A stretch of 64,000 nucleotides of DNA from Eledone cirrhosa (lineage: Eukaryota): contig OZ024742.1 in NCBI GenBank assembly GCA_964016885.1, positions 216,814,001 to 216,878,000 on the forward strand. Reading direction: 5' to 3'. How positions within the stretch are numbered: the first letter of the stretch is position 1; each line of letters opens with the position of its first letter. Shown piece by piece: positions 5,827 to 59,918 of this stretch. The notes beneath the pieces are model-generated. The model saw nothing but the letters and a program-made list of their open reading frames with translations. It made no database searches and was not told the origin of the DNA. Both the position numbers and the translations under genes were made by a program.

Positions 5827-5905
5827 TGCAGATGAGCGAACTGAAGAACACCGAGAAGCTCTTATTGTCGTCAGGTCTACAGGAGCTATAGTGTGGATGC
5901 CCCAG
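5827..5905 (+). CDS. nAChR alpha-type subunit, extracellular-domain exon (first exon visible; 5' exons not found in the window)
   Basis: ttacag|T GCA GAT...CCC CAG|gtaat. Encodes (x)ADERTEEHREALIVVRSTGAIVWMPQ, the segment after the loop-A 'YN' motif. Ends in phase 0 and joins the 26249 exon to give WMPQ-VIYKSSC. Not in the ORF track. Confidence 0.88.
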
Positions 5906-6001
5906 GTAATATATAAAGAATTTCTTCTTTTTGACAATCTGTCTTTCTCATATTTCTATGTATAAGTAATGTATACATACAAACGTAATATATTGTCATA
6001 T

Positions 6002-26248: not shown

Positions 26249-26624
26249 GTTATCTACAAAAGTTCATGTGCTATTGACATCAGCCATTTTCCATTTGATG
26301 AACAAGAATGTGATCTAAAATTTGGGTCATGGACGTACGACGGTTACAAACTGGATGTTAATTTCCTAAACAACTTAACCAAAATCGATCTGTCTGAATA
26401 CATGCCCAGTAATGCATGGGAAATAATCGAAGCTCCTGCCCGCCGAAATGTACAGTATTATAGTTGCTGTCCAGAGCCATATTATGATCTGACCTTCACA
26501 CTGAAGGTCAGGCGGCGATCGGCCTTTTACAACTATCTTTTGATTTTGCCGTGCATTTTACTTTCAACTCTTACATTGGTTCTCTTCTGGATACCTCCGG
26601 AATCCCCAGCCAAAATGGCTTTGG
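26249..26624 (+). CDS. nAChR alpha-type subunit exon: Cys-loop, loops B and C, M1, start of M2
   Basis: tttatag|GTT ATC TAC...TTG G|gtaagt. Translation has Cys-loop CAIDISHFPFDEQEC, loop B GSWTYDG, loop C YYSCCPEPY (vicinal Cys marks an alpha subunit), M1 and PPESPAKMALG. Confidence 0.97.
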
Positions 26625-27629: not shown

Positions 27630-27713
27630 GTATTAACATTTTTGTGGCGTTTTTCTTACTCCTGGTTATTTTGGAATCCAGTTTACCGTCAGCATCAACC
27701 GTGCCTTTGCTTG
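27630..27713 (+). CDS. nAChR exon: M2 and M2-M3 loop
   Basis: ttctag|GT ATT AAC...CTT G|gtaag. 84 nt, phase 1/1. Encodes (G)INIFVAFFLLLVILESSLPSASTVPLL(G). Confidence 0.95.
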
Positions 27714-44240: not shown

Positions 44241-44356
44241 GTATTTATTACTGCTTCAACATGGTGATTATCACTTTGTCTTCTTTCTTAAACGTCCTTG
44301 TCGTCAACATGGCCTTTTATGGACCCCGAGGGGAAGTGCCACAATTTCTCAAGACT
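44241..44356 (+). CDS. nAChR exon: M3 and start of the intracellular loop
   Basis: ctttgcag|GT ATT TAT...AAG ACT|gtaagt. 116 nt, phase 1/0. Encodes (G)IYYCFNMVIITLSSFLNVLVVNMAFYGPRGEVPQFLKT. Confidence 0.95.
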
Positions 44357-44534
44357 GTAAGTGTATATAAATATATATATATATATTTATTTATTTATTT
44401 ATTTATCTTATTTATTTATTTATTCATTATAAGTACAGATTAAAGTTTTAGCAAAGAATCTCTGTGTATATAGAGAGATATATAGACAGAGAGTGAGAGA
44501 GAGATAGAGAGAGATAGAGAGAAAGAGATAGAGC

Positions 44535-44614
<80 letters not shown>

Positions 44615-47129
44615 AAACAAGCAAACAAACAGACAAATAAACAAATATACATACATACGTAATATTTTTGAAACGATCATAAATCGTATAAGAGTCGCTG
44701 GTAAATTCGGTAATGTCTCGGGTTGTTGGGTGGTGAGTGAGGGTTTATATCATGCCTCTGATAAAGTGACATATCCCTCCAAATGATTGACTTGGGACAA
44801 AATACCTAAAAAGGCCTGCTGCTTGAAGAATTAACAAGAAATTGGTTTACACCATACTTGACATAATGAATCACGAAAGTTTAATTAACCAAATTAAACA
44901 TTTCGTCGTGAGACTAAAGTCTCTACCAAAATCATTAATTCTGGTTATAAAAAAAGCAGTTAGGCAGAACTCGTTGAAACACTATAATTGATTAATATTG
45001 CTTTATTTTGTGTGCTGTGCTTAATTTTTTTAAGTCGATTGAGTGGCGGAAACACACACTTTATACCTAACAGTATTTAATGTTAATTTTTTTCCTAATA
45101 CTGAGTTCAAATCCATCAGGGTTATAGCAACCATGTCTTGTTCGAGGACCTGTTGCTCATGTTGTAAGATATAGAACTGAAAACATCTACTTTTCATTTT
45201 AAAGATAATGTGATGTGTTTATAGAAGACTTAGTTGCTACATTGTATAGACTGAGTAACCATATAAAAGCTTTCTCACTTGCAATTCTTAAGTTCTTTTA
45301 TATAGATATTGGTATAATTTATTTCATTTACTTTTTCTTTCAGAAATCAATATTAAAACAACAAAAGTTAGAAATCGATATTTATTGCATACAGTCGATA
45401 TTTATTACATACACAAATGAATCTAATCCCATGTATTGTTATTATATATAGGATAAGTACGAGTGTGGGTAGGTCTGGCGTCAGTCAGAGAGACATGAAC
45501 ATAAACTAGAATAATGTTAATAATTACAATTAATAAATATCAATTGAATGATGATAAATCAATTAAATGACAATTTGTACAAAATTGTATATCAATTAAA
45601 TGATAACGTTTTTGCATGATGCAAAAGAAATGATTAATGTAATAAAAAATACGATAATCGCATTATTACATGACAAATATAAATACATTTCTATACACAT
45701 GCATATATGTATAGAAATATATAACTCAGAGATACTATCCCTATGAAAATAATATTTAAGTAAGTGTTGACATATCTAATTATAACATAAAATAATTATT
45801 AGATGAGGGGAGAAATATTAGTGAAAGACTAATATTTATATTTTGGTAGGGGTATCTTTTATATTAGTAATGCCATTATTTTATCAATACTTTTATATTA
45901 GTAATGCCATTATTTTATCAATAAAGGGTATTTTTCGCTGATGAACTCACAGTAAGACAAAGGCTTTTCCGGAGTCGTCTCCGATATTTACCTAAAATAA
46001 ATGTTTAATATAAATCATTGATTTACTCTTTTCTAATTATTTTCTTGGTACAATTTTTTGTGTATTAAATAGATTTACTCTGAGTTACCTATATGTTTGA
46101 AATTGCCGCAATTGATGTTTATCTTCAGAATCCGGGGTTAGGGAGTTGAAATTCCGGAAAATGAGGATTGGGGGTAGGGATTAGTGCAGGACATGGGAGT
46201 GTGACACAATACGACGAGTGAATCGGATCGATTTCGATTTCGATGAAGTGTGTATGCAATTATCTCGCTCTAGTGGTCAGGGGTATTATGGTAGAGGTAG
46301 GAAAAAAAACTACATATGTGAGTTTGAGGTTGGTAAGTATTGATAAATGACACCTTGCAAATCAGTCGAATGGTTTTATTTCGTATGTGTTCTAGGATGC
46401 TTAGATTTATAGAAGCAGAATCCTCTTAGATGTGGAAAAAATACTCTCTTGTGAATATTACCTGAGCTTTGTAAATAATCTGCAACTTTACGAAACTGGA
46501 ACTGCATTTAACATAGGAAATGTCTTTGTCAGACATTTCCTATCCTTGCGTGCTTGCACTAATTTACTTGTTAAGTTTCATGACAAATACTGTCTTTTTC
46601 GGTGATTCCGATTAATCTACTCAATGGAATGGAACACCTATAATGTTTTCTACATTGCACGTAGTAATATAATCAACTACAACTTTTTTTTTGCTATCAG
46701 ATACAGAACAACTATATAAGGTCAACATTTTTACTATCATGTAATATCAAAAGAATATGAGTGAATGTTCAATTCTATTAGAATCTTAAAAGAATTTCTA
46801 TGGCTTCTTTATTAGAACGAAAGAATCTCTTTTGAAATATGAACAAGAAACACGTTTGAAATTTTGAACACTTTCCTTCTGACTCATTTTAGGGGGAAAT
46901 ACATACAACCTGTTTATGTCCTATGCAACTGTTTCGATTCTTTTTATCAAGAGATAGGAATCCATCTGGTTGGTAAAACGTATCTCTTCTATTGTCTATA
47001 ATAAAACTGACGCATTATAGGGAAATGGTGGCAGTATATAGCAGAAAGGCCAAGCATTAATCTATTTTCCTTACAGCATTTAGATACCTCTAAATCACAG
47101 TCAGTGTTATTTTTCTTTGATTAACTCTA

Positions 47130-47274
47130 TGCCGCCATGCTTTTCAGCATAGAGTTACGGCCCTTTAGGGTCTAAGTTCAAATCCCGCCGAGGTTAACTT
47201 TGCCTTACGGGGTCGATAAAATAAAGCACCAGTAATTCACTGGGGCAATTGCTGGTTTCGTGCCAAAAGTAGAA

Positions 47275-47277
<3 letters not shown>
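47130..47277 (+). mobile_element. SINE family A copy
   Basis: B-box, partly deleted core, tail. Confidence 0.8.
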
Positions 47278-47311
<34 letters not shown>

Positions 47312-47423
47312 CAGTATTTTCCGTAGTGTTGTAATATAAATATTACACACAGTAGATGGACAGCTCACGTAGAGTTTACTCGACGGTTCCAGTTGTAGTT
47401 CCAAAAGTAATCCGGAGAAAAAT

Positions 47424-47605
47424 AGAAGGATTTAAATGGATACAGTTTAGTTAAAAGGATGAAATGACAGTTGATAATAACATTGAAATATTGAATGTTT
47501 GCATAACTAATACTTTGTAGATAGCAGCTGTTTTCAGGTTATGTAACTGTTATTGAAACACGTGTCAATAAATTCCTTTTAACTAAACTGTATCCATTTA
47601 AATCC

Positions 47606-47612
<7 letters not shown>
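47424..47612. repeat. About 36-bp inverted repeat with HHR 3' half (GAAACACGTGTC)
   Basis: tagaaggatttaaatggatacagtttagttaaaagga and its reverse complement before (TA)n. Confidence 0.75.
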
Positions 47613-47647
<35 letters not shown>

Positions 47648-47730
47648 TTAATAATCAATTTGAAGACTAAAATCCAAAGAGGGCTCGATAAGGATAAATA
47701 TATATCAAATATATAAGAACCGTAGAGCAA

Positions 47731-48864
47731 ATATTTATTAAAATAACAGATTAAAGTTTAAGCAAAGAATCGCTGCTTTCACCATTAAAGGGATCTTCTG
47801 AAACTAACAAAGTCAATCTGTGAACACAGAAGTGAATATTTCAAAAAAAACGTTGCAACCGGAGGAAGACAGGAAAACGATACTTTGGTTCGTGGAAACG
47901 TTCCCTGGCAAAGAACGGGATTATTTGGATCGGTGAAAAACAATTACACGCAAAGACGTTTATGGTATAAAAGAAGTCGTAGACTAATATTCTATTAGGT
48001 GGTTCATAGAGACGTTCTCTGGCAATGAACGGAAAAAACGAAGAAAATACGTCATATGTGGAGCGGGAAGAACAATTGCGCGCAAAGACAAAACCACGTA
48101 AATGATATAACTGAAGTCGTAGACAAGAATTCTAGCTAGGAAACCGAATGATTGTCGGCTTCAGAGATAAGAATAAAGTAAATAAAATACAGAGGTAATT
48201 GAAATTAAATAAATACATACACGCATCCATAAACGCACATACACAAGCATACGCGAAAACACTCACCATAGGTATACAAATACACGGACGTACACAAAAA
48301 AAAAGTGTTTTCGCGTATGCTTGTGTATGTACGTTTATGGATGCGTGTATGTATTTATTTAATTTCAATTACTTCTGTATTTTATTTACTTTATTCTTAA
48401 CTCTGAAGCCGAGAATCATTCGGTTTCCTAGTTAGAATTCTTGTCTACGACTTCAGTTATGTCATTTACGTGGTTTTGTCTTTGCGTGCAATTGTTCTCC
48501 CCGCTTCACATATGACGTATTTTCTTCGTGTTTTCCGTTCATTGCCAGAGAACGTCTCTATGAACCACCTAATAGAATATTAGTCTACGACTTCTTTTAT
48601 ACCATAAACGTGGTTTTGTCTTTGCGTGTAATTGTTTTTCACCGATCCAAATAATGACGTATTATATTCGTTTTTTCCCATTCTTTGCCGGGGAACGTTT
48701 CCACGAACCAAAGTATCGTCTTCCTGTCTTCCTCCGATTGCAACGTTTTTTTTAAATATTCACTTCTGCGTTCACAGATTTACTTTGTTAGTTTCATAAG
48801 ATCCCGTTAAGGGTGAAAGCAGCGATTCTTTGCTTAAACTTTAATCTGTTATTTTAATAAATAT
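47731..48864. repeat. 1.13-kb palindrome (arms about 530-560 bp, 40-bp spacer)
   Basis: 47731-48263 is the reverse complement of 48304-48864, with scattered substitutions and short indels. The mirrored ORFs 48132..48368(-) and 48199..48435(+) confirm it. Confidence 0.95.
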
Positions 48865-48884
48865 ATATATATATATATATATAT

Positions 48885-49218
<334 letters not shown>

Positions 49219-49469
49219 AATCGAAAATGCAACTGTAGTCTTATTTTAAAAAATATATATATATTTATTTGGTTCCTTTGCCGGTTTCGCAGTTCTTCTG
49301 CTTTTCAAAAGGAGAGTTGAGATGGAGGGTCTGTGGTTTTTTTCACATCTGGTTGGTCTTTGAATGTTACTTGTTTTATATGGAAAAAAGTGGCTCGAAA
49401 CGCCAGGTTTTCAGAGAAGTAATTAGATTGGTTGGTCAATAAGTATAATAAATTTCGCGCCAGTCGCAT

Positions 49470-52400
49470 TACAAAGTTCTTCCACAGACTGAGCAACTTT
49501 ATAGACATACTACTAAAACCAATTCTCAAACACATACCAAGCCTTGTAAGAGACGATCTGGACCTCTTAAACCACCTCCCCAAACATGTCAACAACGACA
49601 CTATTATTGTGTCTTTCGATATAGTGAATCTCTACACAACGATCCCACACCAATACGGACTAGAAACAATAGGATTCTGGCTAGAGAAATATCCCAATGA
49701 GATACCTGGCAGAATAGAAAAAAGCTTCATCAGCGAGGGATTAAAATTTATCTTACAGAACAACTTTTTTGATTTCGATGGCAGTACTTACAAGCAAATA
49801 TCGGGGACTACGAAGGGTACAAAAGCCGCTCCAACTTATACCAACTTAGTCATGGCATACTTAGAAGTCCAGATATATGAACAGTCCAAATCAAAATACG
49901 GATTGAACTTCCACAAATATTTATCAGAGAATTGGAAACGCTACTTGGATGATTGTCTCATTCTTTGGTCCCACACACTCGACCAACTGAATGATTTCAA
50001 AAACTTAATAAACGGCATCAATAACCACATCCAATTCACAATGGAATACAGCCAAGATCAACTCCCATTTCTGGACATCTTAATCTTAAAAAAAGACACA
50101 AATATTGAAACTGACATACACTACAAACCAACAGATTCCAAACAATACCTCCAACCATCCAAAACACACGAAGACGAACATTCCTTTTAACCTAGCAAGA
50201 AGAATTTGCACAATTGTCTCCAATTATGAAACGCGAAATAAAAGACTTCAAGAATTAAAGGAAATTCTACTCGAAAGACAGTACCCACCATTACTAATAA
50301 ATAATGGAATAGAAAGGGCTAAAGCAATTGGCATTGATGAATTACGAAAACAGAAACAAATTCAAGGTACGTCCAATATTGTATCATATAACTCAACACA
50401 CAACCCAAGAAATGCGGAAGCTTACAACACTATTCACAAGAACATCCCACTACTGAAACAAGACCCAAGAATGAAAAAACCCTTGAAACAAAATAATCAA
50501 AAGTAAAAGACAACCGAAATCACTGAAAACATTACTCACCAATGCCACAACCAACTGTCAAAAAATGTGGTCGCTCTAATTGTGGAACTTGCACTCACCT
50601 CATTGAAGGCAACACGTATACATTTAAATTAGGACAAAATTTTGCTGTAAAAAATTACTTCACTTGCTCATCAAAAAAATCTACTTTATGCCATTAAATG
50701 TAAAGGATGCAATGAAGATTATATAGGACAAACTAAACTCACCCTCAGAAACAGAATGACAGTTCATCGCCAACAATTACGAGATCCAGCCACGAGACAG
50801 ATACCACTAAGCGCATATCTAGACATATGTGCAAGTAATAAGACACCCAAATTCCAAGTCTTCCCATTTTACCTTTGCGCTGACAATACAACAGAACAAA
50901 TACGAATAAATAAGGAAAATATGTTTATTCAAAAATATAGACTAGCATTAAATATGGTTTAATATACATTATGTCAACACCATAACATGCTAACCATCCA
51001 AACAGACACATACACACACACATAACACCTTCTACTTTAGAAAATAAAAACCCGAACTAAATAAACCTTAACATACGTTTGCGCTGACAATACAACAGAA
51101 CAAATAAGAATAAGTAAGGAAAATATGTTCATTCAAAAATATTCCTACTAACGGAATCATTTTCCTACACACACACAATATATATATATTCTCTTCATCT
51201 TAACATGCTAACCATACTCCCACACACACATAACACCCATACACACACACATAACCCCCCCCCCCCCACACACACACACACACACACACACAACTCCCTC
51301 CCCCATTTCTACTAATAGAATCACTTTCCTACACACATATACACACACACAAAATATATATATTCTCTCCATCTTAACATACTTCCCCTCCCCCCACACA
51401 CATAACACCCATACACACACACACACAACTCCCTCCCCCATTTCTACTAATAGAATCATCTTCCTATACACACACACACACAAACACACAAATAAACATA
51501 CAAGTGTGAGTCTGTGTGTAAGTATTTTTTTATATATATGTGCGTATACATATATGTATGTGTATGCATATATATATATGTATGCGTGTGTATATATGTA
51601 TATGTGTGTGTATGTGTATGTTTATGTATACGTGTGTGCACGTCTACGTGTGCATATCCGTATGTGTGTATGTGTGTATGTGTATGTCTATATGTACAAC
51701 ACCATCTCCATTGACTCTCACCTCCCCTCTATCTTTGTTCTACGCCACCCCCACCGATACTCCCCCACTCTCTCTATATATATCTACACGCGCGCATGCA
51801 CATGCATGTGTGTATATATTCATGTAGATATAGGTATGTGTGGATCTATGTGGGCGCGTGTATGTGTGTGTATATAGGTGTGTACGTATGTATATATATC
51901 AGTATATATGCGCATGTGTATGTATATATATACAACGTATTTGTCAGACTAAGAGGGTCTAGGTATGTATCTCCCCATGGATGGACTCGACACCACCAAC
52001 ACCTCCACCACACCACCACAAACGCCACTACCATAAACAACAACACCACAACCACACCCCTCAGACGCCAACCCGTCTACCGGCAACCCACTACCTCCAC
52101 ACCACAACCCATCCCAGTCAGCGACCGTCACCACCATCTTATCATCACATCCACCCCCACATACACTACAGGCCAAAGCCAATCCGCCACCACCACACCC
52201 CAGCCCATCGCAGCCAGCGACCGTCTCCAACATCTTATCATCACATCCACCCCCATATACACTACAGACCAGTACATCCCTTTGATCGTTCCCACCAATC
52301 AAAGCAACTGATATTGTCAAAATCTTGTACTTCTGTCTTGAACTTCTGTCTTTACCACATAGCATGTATTTCATTTTTTATAGCATTTTAAAGGGTCCGT

Positions 52401-52630
52401 CGAGCTGCCGATCATTGAGTCGGGTAGGATCGATACAGATCGAACCTTGAGCTGATCAGTGACGAAACGCGCGTCACCTACCAATAAATGTAATGAAGGA
52501 GTAACCAATCGTCCTCGTTATCCTTTCAATATATTACACTCTGTATAGCTCTACACCTCATCACAGAAGTGAACCTAAACATCGAGTGCTCGCCCGGGTG
52601 AACCTGCAGTAACTCCAAGTTACACCCCCT
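49470..52630 (+). mobile_element. 5'-truncated Penelope-like retroelement (RT, GIY-YIG, 3' UTR and terminal repeat), frameshifted
   Basis: 'SFDIVNLYTTIP', 'YKQISGTTKGTKAAP', 'WKRYLDD', 'LPFLDI', 'HYKPTDS', Cys motif 'KCGRSNCGTC', 'YAIKCKGCNEDYIGQT', 'RMTVHRQ'. Several frameshifts. Confidence 0.92.
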
Positions 52631-52770
52631 TTCGCCGTATTTTTTGACTAAAGAAATTTTAGCCTGATAGTGGGGTATTGACGTACTCAGTACTCATCTT
52701 TTTCCATTTCTTGGAGAGTTCTAAACCCCACTATCAGGCTAAAATTTCTTTGGTCAAAATTGCGGCGAAA
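52630..52770. repeat. About 47-bp inverted repeat hairpin
   Basis: tttcgccgtattttttgactaaagaaattttagcctgatagtgggg versus ccccactatcaggctaaaatttctttggtcaaaattgcggcgaaa. Confidence 0.85.
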
Positions 52771-52832
52771 GCTATTCTATTTTCAAAACTCGCCCCCTGT
52801 TTGAAAACAAACTTGCTTGTTATATATATGTG

Positions 52833-52865
<33 letters not shown>

Positions 52866-53117
52866 ATTGTAAAGTAGGAGTATGTTACGTTAAACTCTGT
52901 AACACCACTAAATTACTTTACATATCTACTAATTAAAACAAAACAATTTATTTAATTAAGCTATCTAATTTCATAGTTAATATTTATCTGCTCAAATTCC
53001 ACTAAAGGACCAGTAAACTATTGGTTTATTTTCAATCAAATACATTCTTTCGTCTTACACAAAGGTTCCATTGTTCGTTTTCGCATAGACAAAAAACAAC
53101 TACCATTATTTCTAAAT

Positions 53118-53302
53118 GAGAGCGGCGAATTGGCAGTATCGGTAGAGGGTCGGACGCCATGCTTTGACGCATAGAGTTACGGCCCTTGCCATTCTGAGTT
53201 CAAATCCCGCCGAGGTTAACTTTGCCTTTCATCCTTACTTTGCCTTTCATCCCAGTAATGCACTGGGTAATTGCTGGCCTTGTGCCAATAGTAGAAACAA
53301 TT
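53118..53302 (+). mobile_element. SINE family A full-length copy with probable TSD
   Basis: Flanked by attatttcta(g)aatg. Internal duplication of ctttgcctttcatcc replaces part of the core. Confidence 0.85.
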
Positions 53303-54169
53303 ATTTCTAGAATGTTTACAGTTCTTTATATACTGTCTTCAAATCACACAGAAACAGACTTTGCTTTTCATCCTCCTGGGATCAATTAAATAATATACTT
53401 GTCAAGTATTGTAACTTATTCAATTCCCTCGCCTTTCCCCCTCCAAATCTGTGGTCCCACGATTCTTTTAGAATCTACTGGTCAAAAACTGTAAATCATG
53501 CAATTGTAAACAACCTCGAAAGTTTTTATAACTTAAAGCAGGCAGTGACCGTGACTATGATCACCACGAGGTGTTTATGACTAGTAAGATCGATGTGGCT
53601 GATGTCCAGCTGAAACAGCTGTAAGTTGATAAAATCTATAAAAATAGTGTGGCTGAATAGGAAGTAAATTTGTAAAAATTGGTTGTGAAGCCTGTGTAAA
53701 ATGTGATGAGATACGATATAGATGACAAGTTGATTGGTAACAAGTAAGGTCGAAATAGCATGCAATTAGAAATAGGTCAGAAGTAGATTAGCTATTTACG
53801 GATAGATGTTCACATTCCGAGCGAACTAACCAGTTCGAATATTTCGTATGATCATATGTTGATTGTAACGGCATATAATATAGAAAGTGTCATTCACAAG
53901 AATATTAAGACCGCCTTCGTAACTTGGTCGTCTTCTCCTCTACTTCATTCCAGTTCAGCAAATCAGCTCATGATGTGTCGGTTTTTGCTCCTAAAACTTC
54001 AAAGTGTCTCGGTCATCTAGTATGATTAATAATGGGTGAGCAGGTTAGAACACATTGAAGTGAAATGTGCATATGTGTGTGTGCGTGTGTCTGTGTGTAT
54101 AAATGTGCGTGGACGTATGTGTAAGGGATAGACGGTGGGGGTGAGAAAAGAGAAATGTAGAGTAATAGA

Positions 54170-54170
54170 G

Positions 54171-54220
<50 letters not shown>

Positions 54221-54308
54221 GAAAAAGAATGAAAGAAAGAAACACAGAAAGAAAAAAAGAAGGAAAGAAAGAAAGAAGGAAAGAAAGAAAGAAGGAAAGA
54301 AAGAAAGA
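54170..54308. repeat. (AAAG)n microsatellite
   Basis: Direct reading. Confidence 0.95.
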
Positions 54309-54997
54309 TAAACTAAGGCGAAGATGACAAAGATAGGCAGAAAAATGGGGAAAGGAGGAAACTTTCTTTCCATAAATAAATAAGTGGCGAGTGTGACCAA
54401 ATAATTCCAACTAAAATTAATGTCGCATTAAATCACAACAGCAGTTGATCATCATGCTCGTAAATGACAAAAATGAATTGTGTATCACTTCGTTAGATTT
54501 ACTTTATTCAATGTCTTGTTTATTCTGTTGTTCGAAGAAATATTGGTTTCTATCCATCAGAATATTTATAGGGATAAGGAAATATATTGGAATATTAATT
54601 AGATCATAAATATTTATGCGCAACACGGCTTATATTAGAATATCTGAGACAAATTTAACGTAACTATAGCTACAGTTTAAAATTATAAACCTCGCTGTGA
54701 AAACGTAAACAAATTTTAAAATATTTCATTATTCTCTTCATATACAAACAAATAGAAGGATTTTCTTTGCATGTTTCACAGGAAATTGATATTTCGTTAA
54801 AAGACAATTAATCATACCCCTTCCCTTACGAAGAATATTCATAGCATATCGCTTTTCACATAAAGCACAAAACAGGAGTTAACTGAAATGGCAAGTTTAA
54901 TTTTCATAACGTGCATTTGGTGGTGATGTAATTCATTAAGAACCCCTATCCCTCCACTCGTTATATTTTTCTTAAATTTTCTTAATGTACTTTTTTT

Positions 54998-55245
54998 TCA
55001 CCCACTTATTCCGGAGAGGGTCGTGGGGGGAAGAGTCCTCAAATACTCCTTTCAGTGAGTCATGTCAGAAGAAACTGTCTCCAATTGATCCGGCTGGATC
55101 CCCAGGAGTGACCAACCAATCTCATGGATGTTATCTAACCATCTTGCTCGAGGTCTATCCCTGGGTCTCCTGCCGGTTAGTTTTGCCCGTAAAATCTGTC
55201 CAGTGATTTTTTCCTGAGACATTCTAACCACACGCCCATAGTATT
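54998..55245 (-). mobile_element. LINE (RTE-like) 3' end
   Basis: Homologous to 18300-18590. Confidence 0.65.
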
Positions 55246-56000
55246 TTAATATACGTATTTAGTGTAAATATTATTTAATCAACTACCTTGCCAACGGATG
55301 CATATTATGCAAATTAGATTAGACATTAAGTTCTAGTTCGTATAAGATACAAATAACGATTTGTTATAATTACTCTCCTTGGGCGAACTAATAAGAAAAC
55401 TTGTCTCCTCGCGAACAACAAACAGGCAGTTAAATGGCAGAGTCACTATGGCGGAGAATAAAAGGTCTTTCGGTATTCGCTCCCGTCTTTCTGCATTCTG
55501 AATTCAAATCCTACCTTTTGAGGTCGATACAACAAATTGCCTATCCAGGATTGTAAATTGGCGGAATTTGTTAGAGCGTAGGAGTTGCCTTATGGCATTT
55601 GTTCCGACTTTTTGCAAATCCTATTGTCACATACTTGGTTGATAGACTTAATCCGTTGCCTTGTGCTCACCATCATCTGGCGATTTTAGCGAAGTCCACT
55701 CTGTTACAAGTTGACTTCTTTAAGGATTTGAACTCATTTACACAATTTTATCTTCCATTGAATCTAATGTGACTGGCATATTTCACATTTAGATTCCATG
55801 GAATAAAACATAATTACAGCAGCTAAAATCTGGTTTCCACTAAAGATTTTGTTATTTCTATTTGAACTTAGAGACGTAAACTACATACCGTAAGGTGTTC
55901 CGTGTGGTCCTGTTTCTTCCACTGGTTGAACTTCATATATATGTGTGTATGTGTATGTATTAATTTATATGAGCGTATGTATATATATATATACGAGTTG

Positions 56001-56360
56001 ATATATATAATAGTAAAAAAGAAAAAAGACAGTAGAAAATGCTAAAAGGATTTTCTCTCAGAATAACAGCAAAACATTTATTTACAAAATAGGAATTTCC
56101 GCATTATTCGTACTGGTTTCAGGTTATAGGCTTCTTTTTTCTATATATATATGTATGTAAAAAAAATGTTTTCCCATATTCTTATTGATATGCAATGTAA
56201 TTGCATTATACACTTCCATCGCATGAAGAAGTCTATAAGCTGAAACCGGTACGAATAATGCGGAAAATCCTATCTTGTAAATAAATGTTTTGCTGTTATT
56301 CTGAGAGAAAATCCCTTTAGCATTTCCTACTATTTTTTTTTATTTTTTACTATTATATAT
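56001..56360. mobile_element. PLE-type remnant with about 125-bp inverted repeats and a degenerate sense-strand HHR
   Basis: 56001-56126 versus 56226-56360 (reverse complement). tcg CATGAAGA ag..ct GAAAC cg GTA cga at about 56219-56254. Confidence 0.75.
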
Positions 56361-56756
56361 ATGTGTGTGTGTATGCGTGTGTGTTTGTGTGTGTGTGTGT
56401 GTGTAAGTGTGTGTAAGTGTGTGTAAGTGTGTGTGTGTGAAATGTGTGCTTCCCTATGAAAATGATTGTTGTAGTTAGGAAAAGTAGACAGAAGCACATC
56501 TGTCAACGTTTTTCCAATTTTCTTAACTTTTATTCTTAATAATTGACCATTATTATGTTTATTTGCACAGATTTCAAATTTTAAATTCTCGCAATAATTC
56601 TTAATTTAACCATGTGTGTGTGTGTGTGTGTGTTTATATGTAAATGTGTGTATGTATGTGTGTATGTGTGCATGTGTGTGTGTGTAAATGAAATGTTTAC
56701 ACCAAGTGAATTATAACTATGTTGATATAAATATTCTTTTCTTTTCTTTCTTGCAG

Positions 56757-57443
56757 CTTGCATTCGAAATTTTCGCTCGAATCTTCTTTATGAATAGGCT
56801 TGTAGGAAACGTAACTGAAACAGACACACAGACGAAAAAATCTTCAGAAAATCCGTCTCGTACAACGGCTAATGGAAATCATTTTGTCGGAGTAGATGCT
56901 GAAACAAGTTGGCTGGCAGACGGCTGGAGAGAAGCTCATGAAGCCAGCAAAAGTATTATCAGTGGAGGTCCAGGAGGCCACTCGCACATCCCGGGTAGTT
57001 GCGGTCGGGCACTACATCATCGCGGAGAACACGGTCCCGGGATCTACCACACTGGGGGTGGTTGTAGTACTGGTGGCAGAAGCCACGCTAGTGGCGGTGT
57101 TTACCAGGGTGCCGGATGTGCTAGTGGCAGTCATTCGCATGGAGGTCATGCTCATGCCGGAAGCCATGGTCATGCTGGAAGTCATGGTCATGTCGGAAGT
57201 CATGCTCATGCTGGTGGTCATGCTCATACCGGAAGTCATGGGCATTCGGGAGGTCATGGCCATAGCCATGGTCATTCTGGTGGTCATGGTCATATCGGTG
57301 GTCATGCTAGTGCTCGTAGTAGTGGTGGTGGCGGCGGCGTTGGTGGGAGTGGTGGAGGACATCCTAGTGGTGGACATGCAGGTTGTCGAGCAGAGCATGT
57401 TGTTGGTGGACATGGCGGTAGTGGTGGTGGTGGTGGTGGTGGA

Positions 57444-57480
<37 letters not shown>

Positions 57481-57803
57481 GAGGTGGTAGTAGTATTGGT
57501 AGTAGTAGTATTAGTGGCGGTGCTGGTGCATGTGTTGCTAGCGGGGGCTCTGGAAGCTGTGAGAGTCTGATGAAACGTAAGGAACTTATTCAGATTGAAA
57601 GAGATGTGAAAGCAATTCGAAAGTTTGTGAGTGAAAGTATGTACCGACTCGCCGAATCCGACCGCAAAGAAAAGTTGGCAAGAGAATGGAAAGCAGTTGC
57701 CTTGATATTTGATCGCCTTTTCTTTATTTTCTACGTTGTTATTATTTCGATTTCACTGGTTGTCGTTCCAGTGACTTTGAGAGCTGGATTAGGCAAAAAA
57801 TAA
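56757..57803 (+). CDS. nAChR terminal coding exon: MX, His/Gly-rich intracellular loop, MA helix, M4, stop
   Basis: cttgcag|CTT GCA TTC, phase 0. Ends with the canonical ...EWKAVALIFDRLFFIFYVVII... M4 signature and TAA at 57801-57803. Confidence 0.95.
57126..57308 (+). repeat. Coding 18-nt tandem repeat encoding G-[S/G]-H-[A/G/S]-H-x units
   Basis: About 10 imperfect units such as GGAAGTCATGGTCATGCT. 21 His in 61 codons. Confidence 0.9.
57423..57488 (+). repeat. Coding (GGN)22 poly-glycine tract
   Basis: GGT/GGA/GGC run of 66 nt, in frame with the exon. Confidence 0.95.

Positions 57804-59372: not shown

Positions 59373-59918
<546 letters not shown>

Follow-up and report, generated by a model that had tools for sequence, protein, structure and literature searches.

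The window analyzed here is the whole 64,000-nucleotide stretch of the Eledone cirrhosa contig OZ024742.1 (positions 216,814,001 to 216,878,000, forward strand; assembly GCA_964016885.1). It carries a receptor gene with seven coding exons, of which five lie within the window and two upstream of it. Every exon border is AG/GT, and the joined exons encode 667 residues in one continuous frame, the signal exon not included; no signal-peptide exon was located for the receptor gene. The exons, and the features of the last of them, are as follows:

Exons A and B, 12.8 kb and 6.5 kb upstream of the window: coding
Exon C, 5827..5905, + strand: extracellular domain; AG/GT borders, frame continuous
Exon D, 26249..26624, + strand: Cys-loop, loop B Trp, loop C YxCC (alpha type), M1 and the PAK pore motif
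Exon E, 27630..27713, + strand: M2 and the M2-M3 linker
Exon F, 44241..44356, + strand: M3 and the beginning of the M3-M4 loop
Exon G, 56757..57803, + strand: last coding exon, with MX helix, insert-bearing loop, MA helix, M4 and stop
Loop start, 56757..56963, + strand: MX helix and a conserved non-repetitive part, from alignments
Insert, 56964..57560, + strand: 199 residues rich in His, Gly and Ser; predicted to be disordered
His/Cys segment, 56976..57050, + strand: non-repetitive and conserved, with 6 His and 1 Cys
HxH tandem array, 57126..57305, + strand: 21 His within 60 residues; repeat unit of 18 bp
Gly22 run, 57423..57488, + strand: GGN triplets; species-specific
MA helix and M4, 57561..57773, + strand

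The gene shows the marks of a nicotinic alpha subunit, namely the Cys-x13-Cys loop, the loop A Tyr, the loop B Trp and the vicinal Cys of loop C, and a PAK motif precedes M2. A PF02931 match (E 1.4e-26) supports exon D; the PF02932 match at the end of the exon G frame was weak and under the cut-off (E 0.044). Exon G is a single open frame from MX to M4 and the stop (within a 371-codon ORF), and the joined frame takes in M1 to M4 along with MX and MA, the helices being those predicted on the Argonauta orthologue. Nearest among named proteins were those of Octopus, with 96% identity over the ligand-binding exon, and the M1-PAK stretch had three close matches in the genome (100, 82 and 74%). An earlier note on this DNA had assigned a loop with 34 His to an acetylcholine receptor, and the gene indeed encodes a Cys-loop nicotinic alpha subunit. 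The exon G frame likewise confirmed its description of six Cys and a Gly22 tract, in frame between intact MX and MA/M4 segments. Its array of 21 His in 61 residues stood as to the His count, and the span proved one residue narrower, at 60.

The full M3-M4 loop comprises 325 residues, including 34 His, 91 Gly and 6 Cys. Its start (56757..56963) contains a two-Trp segment resembling a motif in gastropod and bivalve relatives. The 199-residue insert that follows holds 85 Gly, 32 His, 30 Ser, 6 Cys and 2 Tyr, with no Phe and no Trp, and its charge apart from His amounts to 2 acidic and 5 basic residues. The insert is predicted to be disordered, with MX and MA/M4 intact: in an AlphaFold2 model of the Argonauta orthologue (54 sequences, mean pLDDT 65.8) the MX and MA/M4 helices were formed, and residues 405-636, which make up the whole insert, had a pLDDT below 50. 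The M3-M4 loop faces the cytosol in the established topology of Cys-loop receptors, and the insert thus places HxH clusters plus Cys in a predicted disordered loop on the cytosolic side of the receptor.

The array consists of eight G[SG]HxHx units. A degenerate pattern of two units gave six overlapping matches in the 3.0-Gb genome, all six of them inside the array, against one match for the reversed control; thus, the array is not a chance pattern. A six-frame search of 475 kb (the window and the fetched loci) revealed no second 60-residue stretch with at least 15 His and at least 12 Gly. We infer that the array and the Gly run grew by slippage of the 18-bp unit and of GGN triplets, respectively. 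We also considered, and rejected, that the array had been transferred from a different octopus gene, since a protein search that scored 150 of 17,806 candidates recovered only the query itself and the pattern search of the genome gave no second locus. Two other open reading frames over the insert, of 224 residues in the +1 frame and 246 residues in reverse, were set aside as low-complexity by-products.

We then compared the loop with those of related receptors. His richness was found in four octopod species. Conservation of His among orthologues, on which the earlier note had made its proposal depend, held in three other octopod models, with the qualification that repeat units, length and Gly content vary. 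The loop of O. bimaculoides (P0117) has 268 residues with 33 His and a longest Gly run of 5, that of Argonauta hians (P0114) has 359 residues with 40 His and a longest Gly run of 8, and the O. vulgaris model contains 21 His before it breaks off (longest Gly run 4). Four of the six Cys are kept in the orthologues; the Gly22 run is not conserved among them. Loops were measurable in 27 of the 31 gastropod and bivalve rows of the clade and were 109-155 residues long, all with at most 4 His. More broadly, 66 of 131 proteins gave a loop, and the loops of the 64 non-orthologues were 126 residues long at the median, with none exceeding 10 His. Both AChRB paralogues in the genome have ordinary loops, and such an array was found in none of 17 other M4-bearing Cys-loop frames of the genome (two of which are the AChRB paralogues; sample of 89 matches). 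Among 147 further MA/M4 relatives, the densest stretch held 15 His in 60 residues, followed by 10 and 9. The His array was seen in octopods alone among the loops compared.

Searches for a squid, cuttlefish or Nautilus counterpart came back blank and therefore do not date the insert. No decapodiform name appeared among ligand-binding-exon matches to longer proteins (110 of 204 candidates), and such a loop was found neither by a loop-start search, which gave one match of 20 candidates, nor by MA-M4 against shorter proteins (0 of 99), by HMMER over representatives (best 150 of 227 matches, identity at most 52%) or in metagenome contigs (0 of 594). An ESM Atlas search gave no usable match. A 136-residue fragment, P0115, falls in the clade of the window gene and ends before the loop. 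Other low-complexity inserts, independent of the octopod one, occur in this loop, of Gly/Ser type in Babylonia (31 Gly), Gly-Gln in Elysia and His/Gln in another relative (P0037, P0046 and P0203). Since relatives carry inserts of their own, the loop tolerates low-complexity growth.

Tentatively, we favor the reading of the insert as a Zn- and proton-binding disordered tether that would tune trafficking, clustering or desensitization of the receptor. Tolerated replication slippage is a close rival to this tether reading: the array and the Gly run would have expanded in a permissive loop of a microsatellite-rich genome and would serve at most as a spacer, with the loop start alone under selection. 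We consider this possible, if somewhat doubtful. It is consistent with the 18-bp period of the DNA (a TRF array at 57141-57263, 6.8 copies, 79% matches), with the use of CAT for all 21 His of the array, with the 137 TRF rows returned for the window and with the variation of unit type and length between species. The Babylonia and Elysia inserts in the same loop and the relative with 15 His in 60 residues point the same way, as does the finding that 5-HT3A stays functional when 2-7 Ala take the place of its loop (PMC3335078). Arguing against slippage are the absence of the array from the 17 other M4-bearing frames and the pattern of substitutions in exon G.

This pattern was obtained by comparing the window with contigs from two runs of related organisms, X1 and X17, for each of which the change counts rest on 40 listed differences; many changes are common to both runs, which do not count as independent. 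Over the first 99 codons of exon G, dN/dS was 0.047 (X1) and 0.056 (X17) at a dS of 0.47 and 0.60. The loop start showed a pN of 0.025 versus a pS of 0.31-0.42, and codons 70-99, with 6 His and 1 Cys, a pN of 0.015 and 0.053 versus a pS of 0.43 and 0.41 (X1 and X17, respectively). In these latter codons, synonymous changes outnumbered replacements by 10:1 (X1) and 9.5:3.5 (X17), with Fisher P values of 2e-6 and 2e-4. By these counts, purifying selection acts on the His/Cys segment preceding the array; all its His are invariant in four species, and the segment is constrained although its DNA has no periodicity, which speaks against slippage. Constraint was not significant in codons 101-125 (P 0.24), a point against the tether reading.

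Constraint on this part of the exon need not concern His, because the loop start is equally constrained and His were kept no better than their neighbors in the alignable part (9/9 versus 93/114, a nonsignificant difference). Within the array, 0 of 12 minimal change events among the eight units fell in His codons, which is again unfavorable to slippage; several Gly codon positions are invariant too, and the corresponding test, which is post hoc, gave P of about 0.008 for six columns and 0.05 for four replacement columns. The tether reading draws support from these changes in codons 70-99 and in the array, and from the His counts of 34, 33 and 40, seen against a synonymous divergence of 0.47-0.6 to X1 and X17; a total that stayed at 33-40 counts against slippage. 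Under neutrality, about 0.2-0.3 of His codons would remain His at the divergence of X1 and X17, so that the steady count requires selection or continued slippage. The latter could sustain the His content without selection, which speaks against the tether reading.

A further explanation, which we regard as unlikely, takes the insert for a tag that would target the receptor or gather it into clusters by binding proteins or by partitioning into condensates, with His acting as weak stickers and metal not needed. The loops of Cys-loop receptors are known scaffold-binding sites, the insert is of low complexity, predicted to be disordered and almost uncharged apart from His, and several copies could be displayed per pentamer. 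The earlier note had drawn a condensate analogy with squid beak proteins. Those known as HBP-1 and HBP-2 resemble the insert in being cephalopod, disordered and rich in Gly-His repeats. However, these are secreted structural proteins with GHGLY repeats, and their coacervation requires both GHGLY and Tyr, loss of one of two Tyr having abolished phase separation (PMC6884462, as far as the accessible text goes). The insert, in contrast, is cytoplasmic, lacks GHGLY, Phe and Trp, and has 2 Tyr among its 199 residues. The squid beak mechanism therefore does not transfer, and the analogy is weak.

Finally, the array might be missing from the mature protein, through an assembly artifact, splicing or an alternative last exon; we consider this very improbable. 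Contigs from 8 of 24 listed runs were compared, the runs being those of related organisms and their RNA label being presumed. In X1 and X10 contigs, the match started exactly at 56757, and the 26 preceding letters are the end of exon F, which lies 12.4 kb upstream; this is the spliced exon F-exon G junction. The exon junction that the earlier note had wished to see confirmed is thus GT-AG in phase 0 (44356 to 56757) and is joined in contigs of relatives. The same X1 contig reaches 57191 and then continues with further in-frame His-Ser-His-Gly codons, and contigs of X2 and X17 match from 56757 into the array, with about 700 and 606 extra letters upstream. An X20 contig starts at 56757 and ends before the array, an X16 contig contains MA-M4 alone, and X18 gave no coding piece among the matches listed. 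A contig of X24, near-identical to the window, covers 56853-57406 with one difference and no gap; it does not count as independent because X24 may be the source sample.

On the side of a missing array, none of the contigs listed bridges the Gly22 run or spans the whole of exon G, and several gene models lack an intact last exon. At the Gly22 run the repeat cuts the reads, so that we give the gap there no weight. The RefSeq models of O. sinensis carry another tail of 16 residues and no M4; that of O. vulgaris ends within the array. A separate 77-residue model consists of MA-M4 alone. Public models are truncated, split or broken at the GC-rich repeat in three Octopus species (P0001, P0112, P0113, P0002 and P0111). 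Against this, the insert is carried by two full orthologue models, no acceptor-like site able to remove the array was found inside exon G, and the O. sinensis tail had no match in the window downstream of exon F.

We next asked which acetylcholine receptor the gene encodes. In a tree of 78 rows (quick maximum-likelihood search, no bootstrap), the window gene and its orthologues share a 37-row clade with LnAChR K of Lymnaea stagnalis (ABA60389.1, P0064; SH-aLRT 100), where the sister of the octopod clade is the K subclade together with two further groups. The orthologue of the C19 paralogue grouped with type B in this quick tree. LnAChR K has the same loop D W-D-R-Y and the same PAK motif as the window gene; its loop, however, has 123 residues and 3 His, versus 320 residues and 34 His in the window gene under the same rule. 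W-D-R-Y (end of exon A, window position -12609) is common to 13 of 14 K-subclade rows, the remaining one not being parsed. It also occurs in 5 annelid- or brachiopod-type rows, and the B clade has mostly Thr or Ser at the place of the Arg. The agonist carboxylate is bound by an Arg at this point of loop D in glycine, GABA-A and GluCl receptors. The loop D Arg of K-type subunits matches this place, and their preferred ligand may therefore be a different one.

A preprint on octopus Cys-loop receptors names three AChRB genes, members of the anion-type lophotrochozoan nicotinic receptors, with PAK as the criterion, and describes AChRB1 as an acetylcholine-gated chloride channel by measurement and AChRB2 and AChRB3 as giving no homomeric current (bioRxiv 10.1101/2025.04.02.646353, main text). 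The window gene has PAK and the nicotinic alpha-type fold in common with them, and the three genomic M1-PAK matches compare with three named members. The C19 paralogue, which falls with type B and whose loop is ordinary, unlike that of the window gene, is apparently AChRB1; judging from RefSeq numbering, the AChRB1 accession XM_052969792.1 probably corresponds to XP_052825752.1, of a C19-like cluster. Because AChRB1 seems to be the C19 paralogue and the window gene groups with LnAChR K, the window gene is probably AChRB2 or AChRB3. The subunit is predicted from its PAK motif to pass chloride, and the silent AChRB2 and AChRB3 homomers suggest that it works as part of a heteromer.

As to function, the earlier note had suggested a metal- or pH-sensing module. 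We retained this idea, since the array is present in spliced-looking contigs of relatives, His is kept among octopods and the His/Cys segment is under purifying selection. According to the tether reading, the insert would hang as a disordered cytoplasmic tether on an octopod nicotinic alpha subunit of the LnAChR K type, and its His clusters would bind Zn2+ and protons. Once bound, Zn2+ or protons would tune an inhibitory receptor, probably a heteromer, in its surface level, clustering or desensitization. For a defined metal site, the His/Cys segment is the strongest candidate; the HxH array would contribute avidity, and the Gly run most likely serves as a free spacer. Free Zn in the resting cytosol is very low and the pKa of His lies about one unit below cytosolic pH, so that occupancy by Zn or protons may be small.

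A precedent is offered by the His-rich cytosolic loop of human ZIP4, which resembles the insert in that clustered His occur with Cys in a disordered cytosolic part of a membrane protein. ZIP4 is, however, a zinc transporter with 5 loop His and another sequence and fold, versus 32 His on a neurotransmitter-gated channel. Its loop is reported to have nanomolar zinc affinity and to be required for zinc-induced degradation (PMC7661102, citing earlier work), and removal of the loop His left zinc sensing in endocytosis unaffected (PMC7661102; both statements after the portion of the article available). The precedent thus cuts both ways, because degradation needs the loop and endocytic zinc sensing does not need its His. 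That such a loop can influence a channel is illustrated by 5-HT3A, where loop length and sequence affect expression and desensitization (available part of PMC3335078). A more far-reaching version, in which the insert is a dedicated intracellular zinc/pH sensor of octopods, the K-type subunit adding more than 30 His per copy to AChRB1 pentamers and making cholinergic inhibition dependent on Zn2+ or acid, seems improbable to us.

For Cys-loop receptors, modulation by zinc and protons has been described chiefly at the outer and membrane domains. If a selected inner-loop sensor were true, it would constitute a new control point, with a Cys-loop receptor metal-regulated from inside via the M3-M4 loop, and it would sit on a receptor family believed to mediate inhibition in the visual system of the octopus. 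Among the relatives compared, the insert is a real octopod-restricted variant of a known receptor, with a putative sensing role. The receptor family is known, and the window gene, as AChRB2 or AChRB3, has probably been assayed once. We found no description of the insert in the literature searched, to which subscription papers, such as van Nierop's Lymnaea work, and supplements may add. The terms "histidine" and "intracellular loop" are absent from the main text, supplements aside, of the octopus preprint (10.1101/2025.04.02.646353), "histidine" is absent from the main text of a venom-gland preprint (10.1101/2025.06.15.659772) and of PMC6896357, and the available portions of PMC13174522, PMC4193815 and PMC12240821 hold nothing on the loop. 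The negative oocyte result for AChRB2 and AChRB3 may hinge on the last exon of the construct, because public models break there; the broken last-exon models thus matter even if the array is merely a spacer.

Some further features were seen in and around the gene. The intron start after exon C (5906-5917) and the start of exon D (26249-26260) translate to the same four residues, a likeness that is a possible trace of a duplication-born intron. The intron between exons F and G contains a broken retroelement (49423-50962, + strand), whose reverse transcriptase (PF00078, E 3e-7) and GIY-YIG (PF01541, E 1.4e-6) matches are read in different frames; we take the element to be Penelope-like. Downstream of the stop, 59373-59917 is a minisatellite of 5.9 copies of 93-95 bp with AT/GT microsatellite pieces. 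Elsewhere in the genome, at G000:C11:23618036-23925011, we observed a tandem cluster in which the ligand-binding domain matched more than 20 times, in open frames about 380-430 residues long, which presumably are intronless chemotactile-receptor-like genes.
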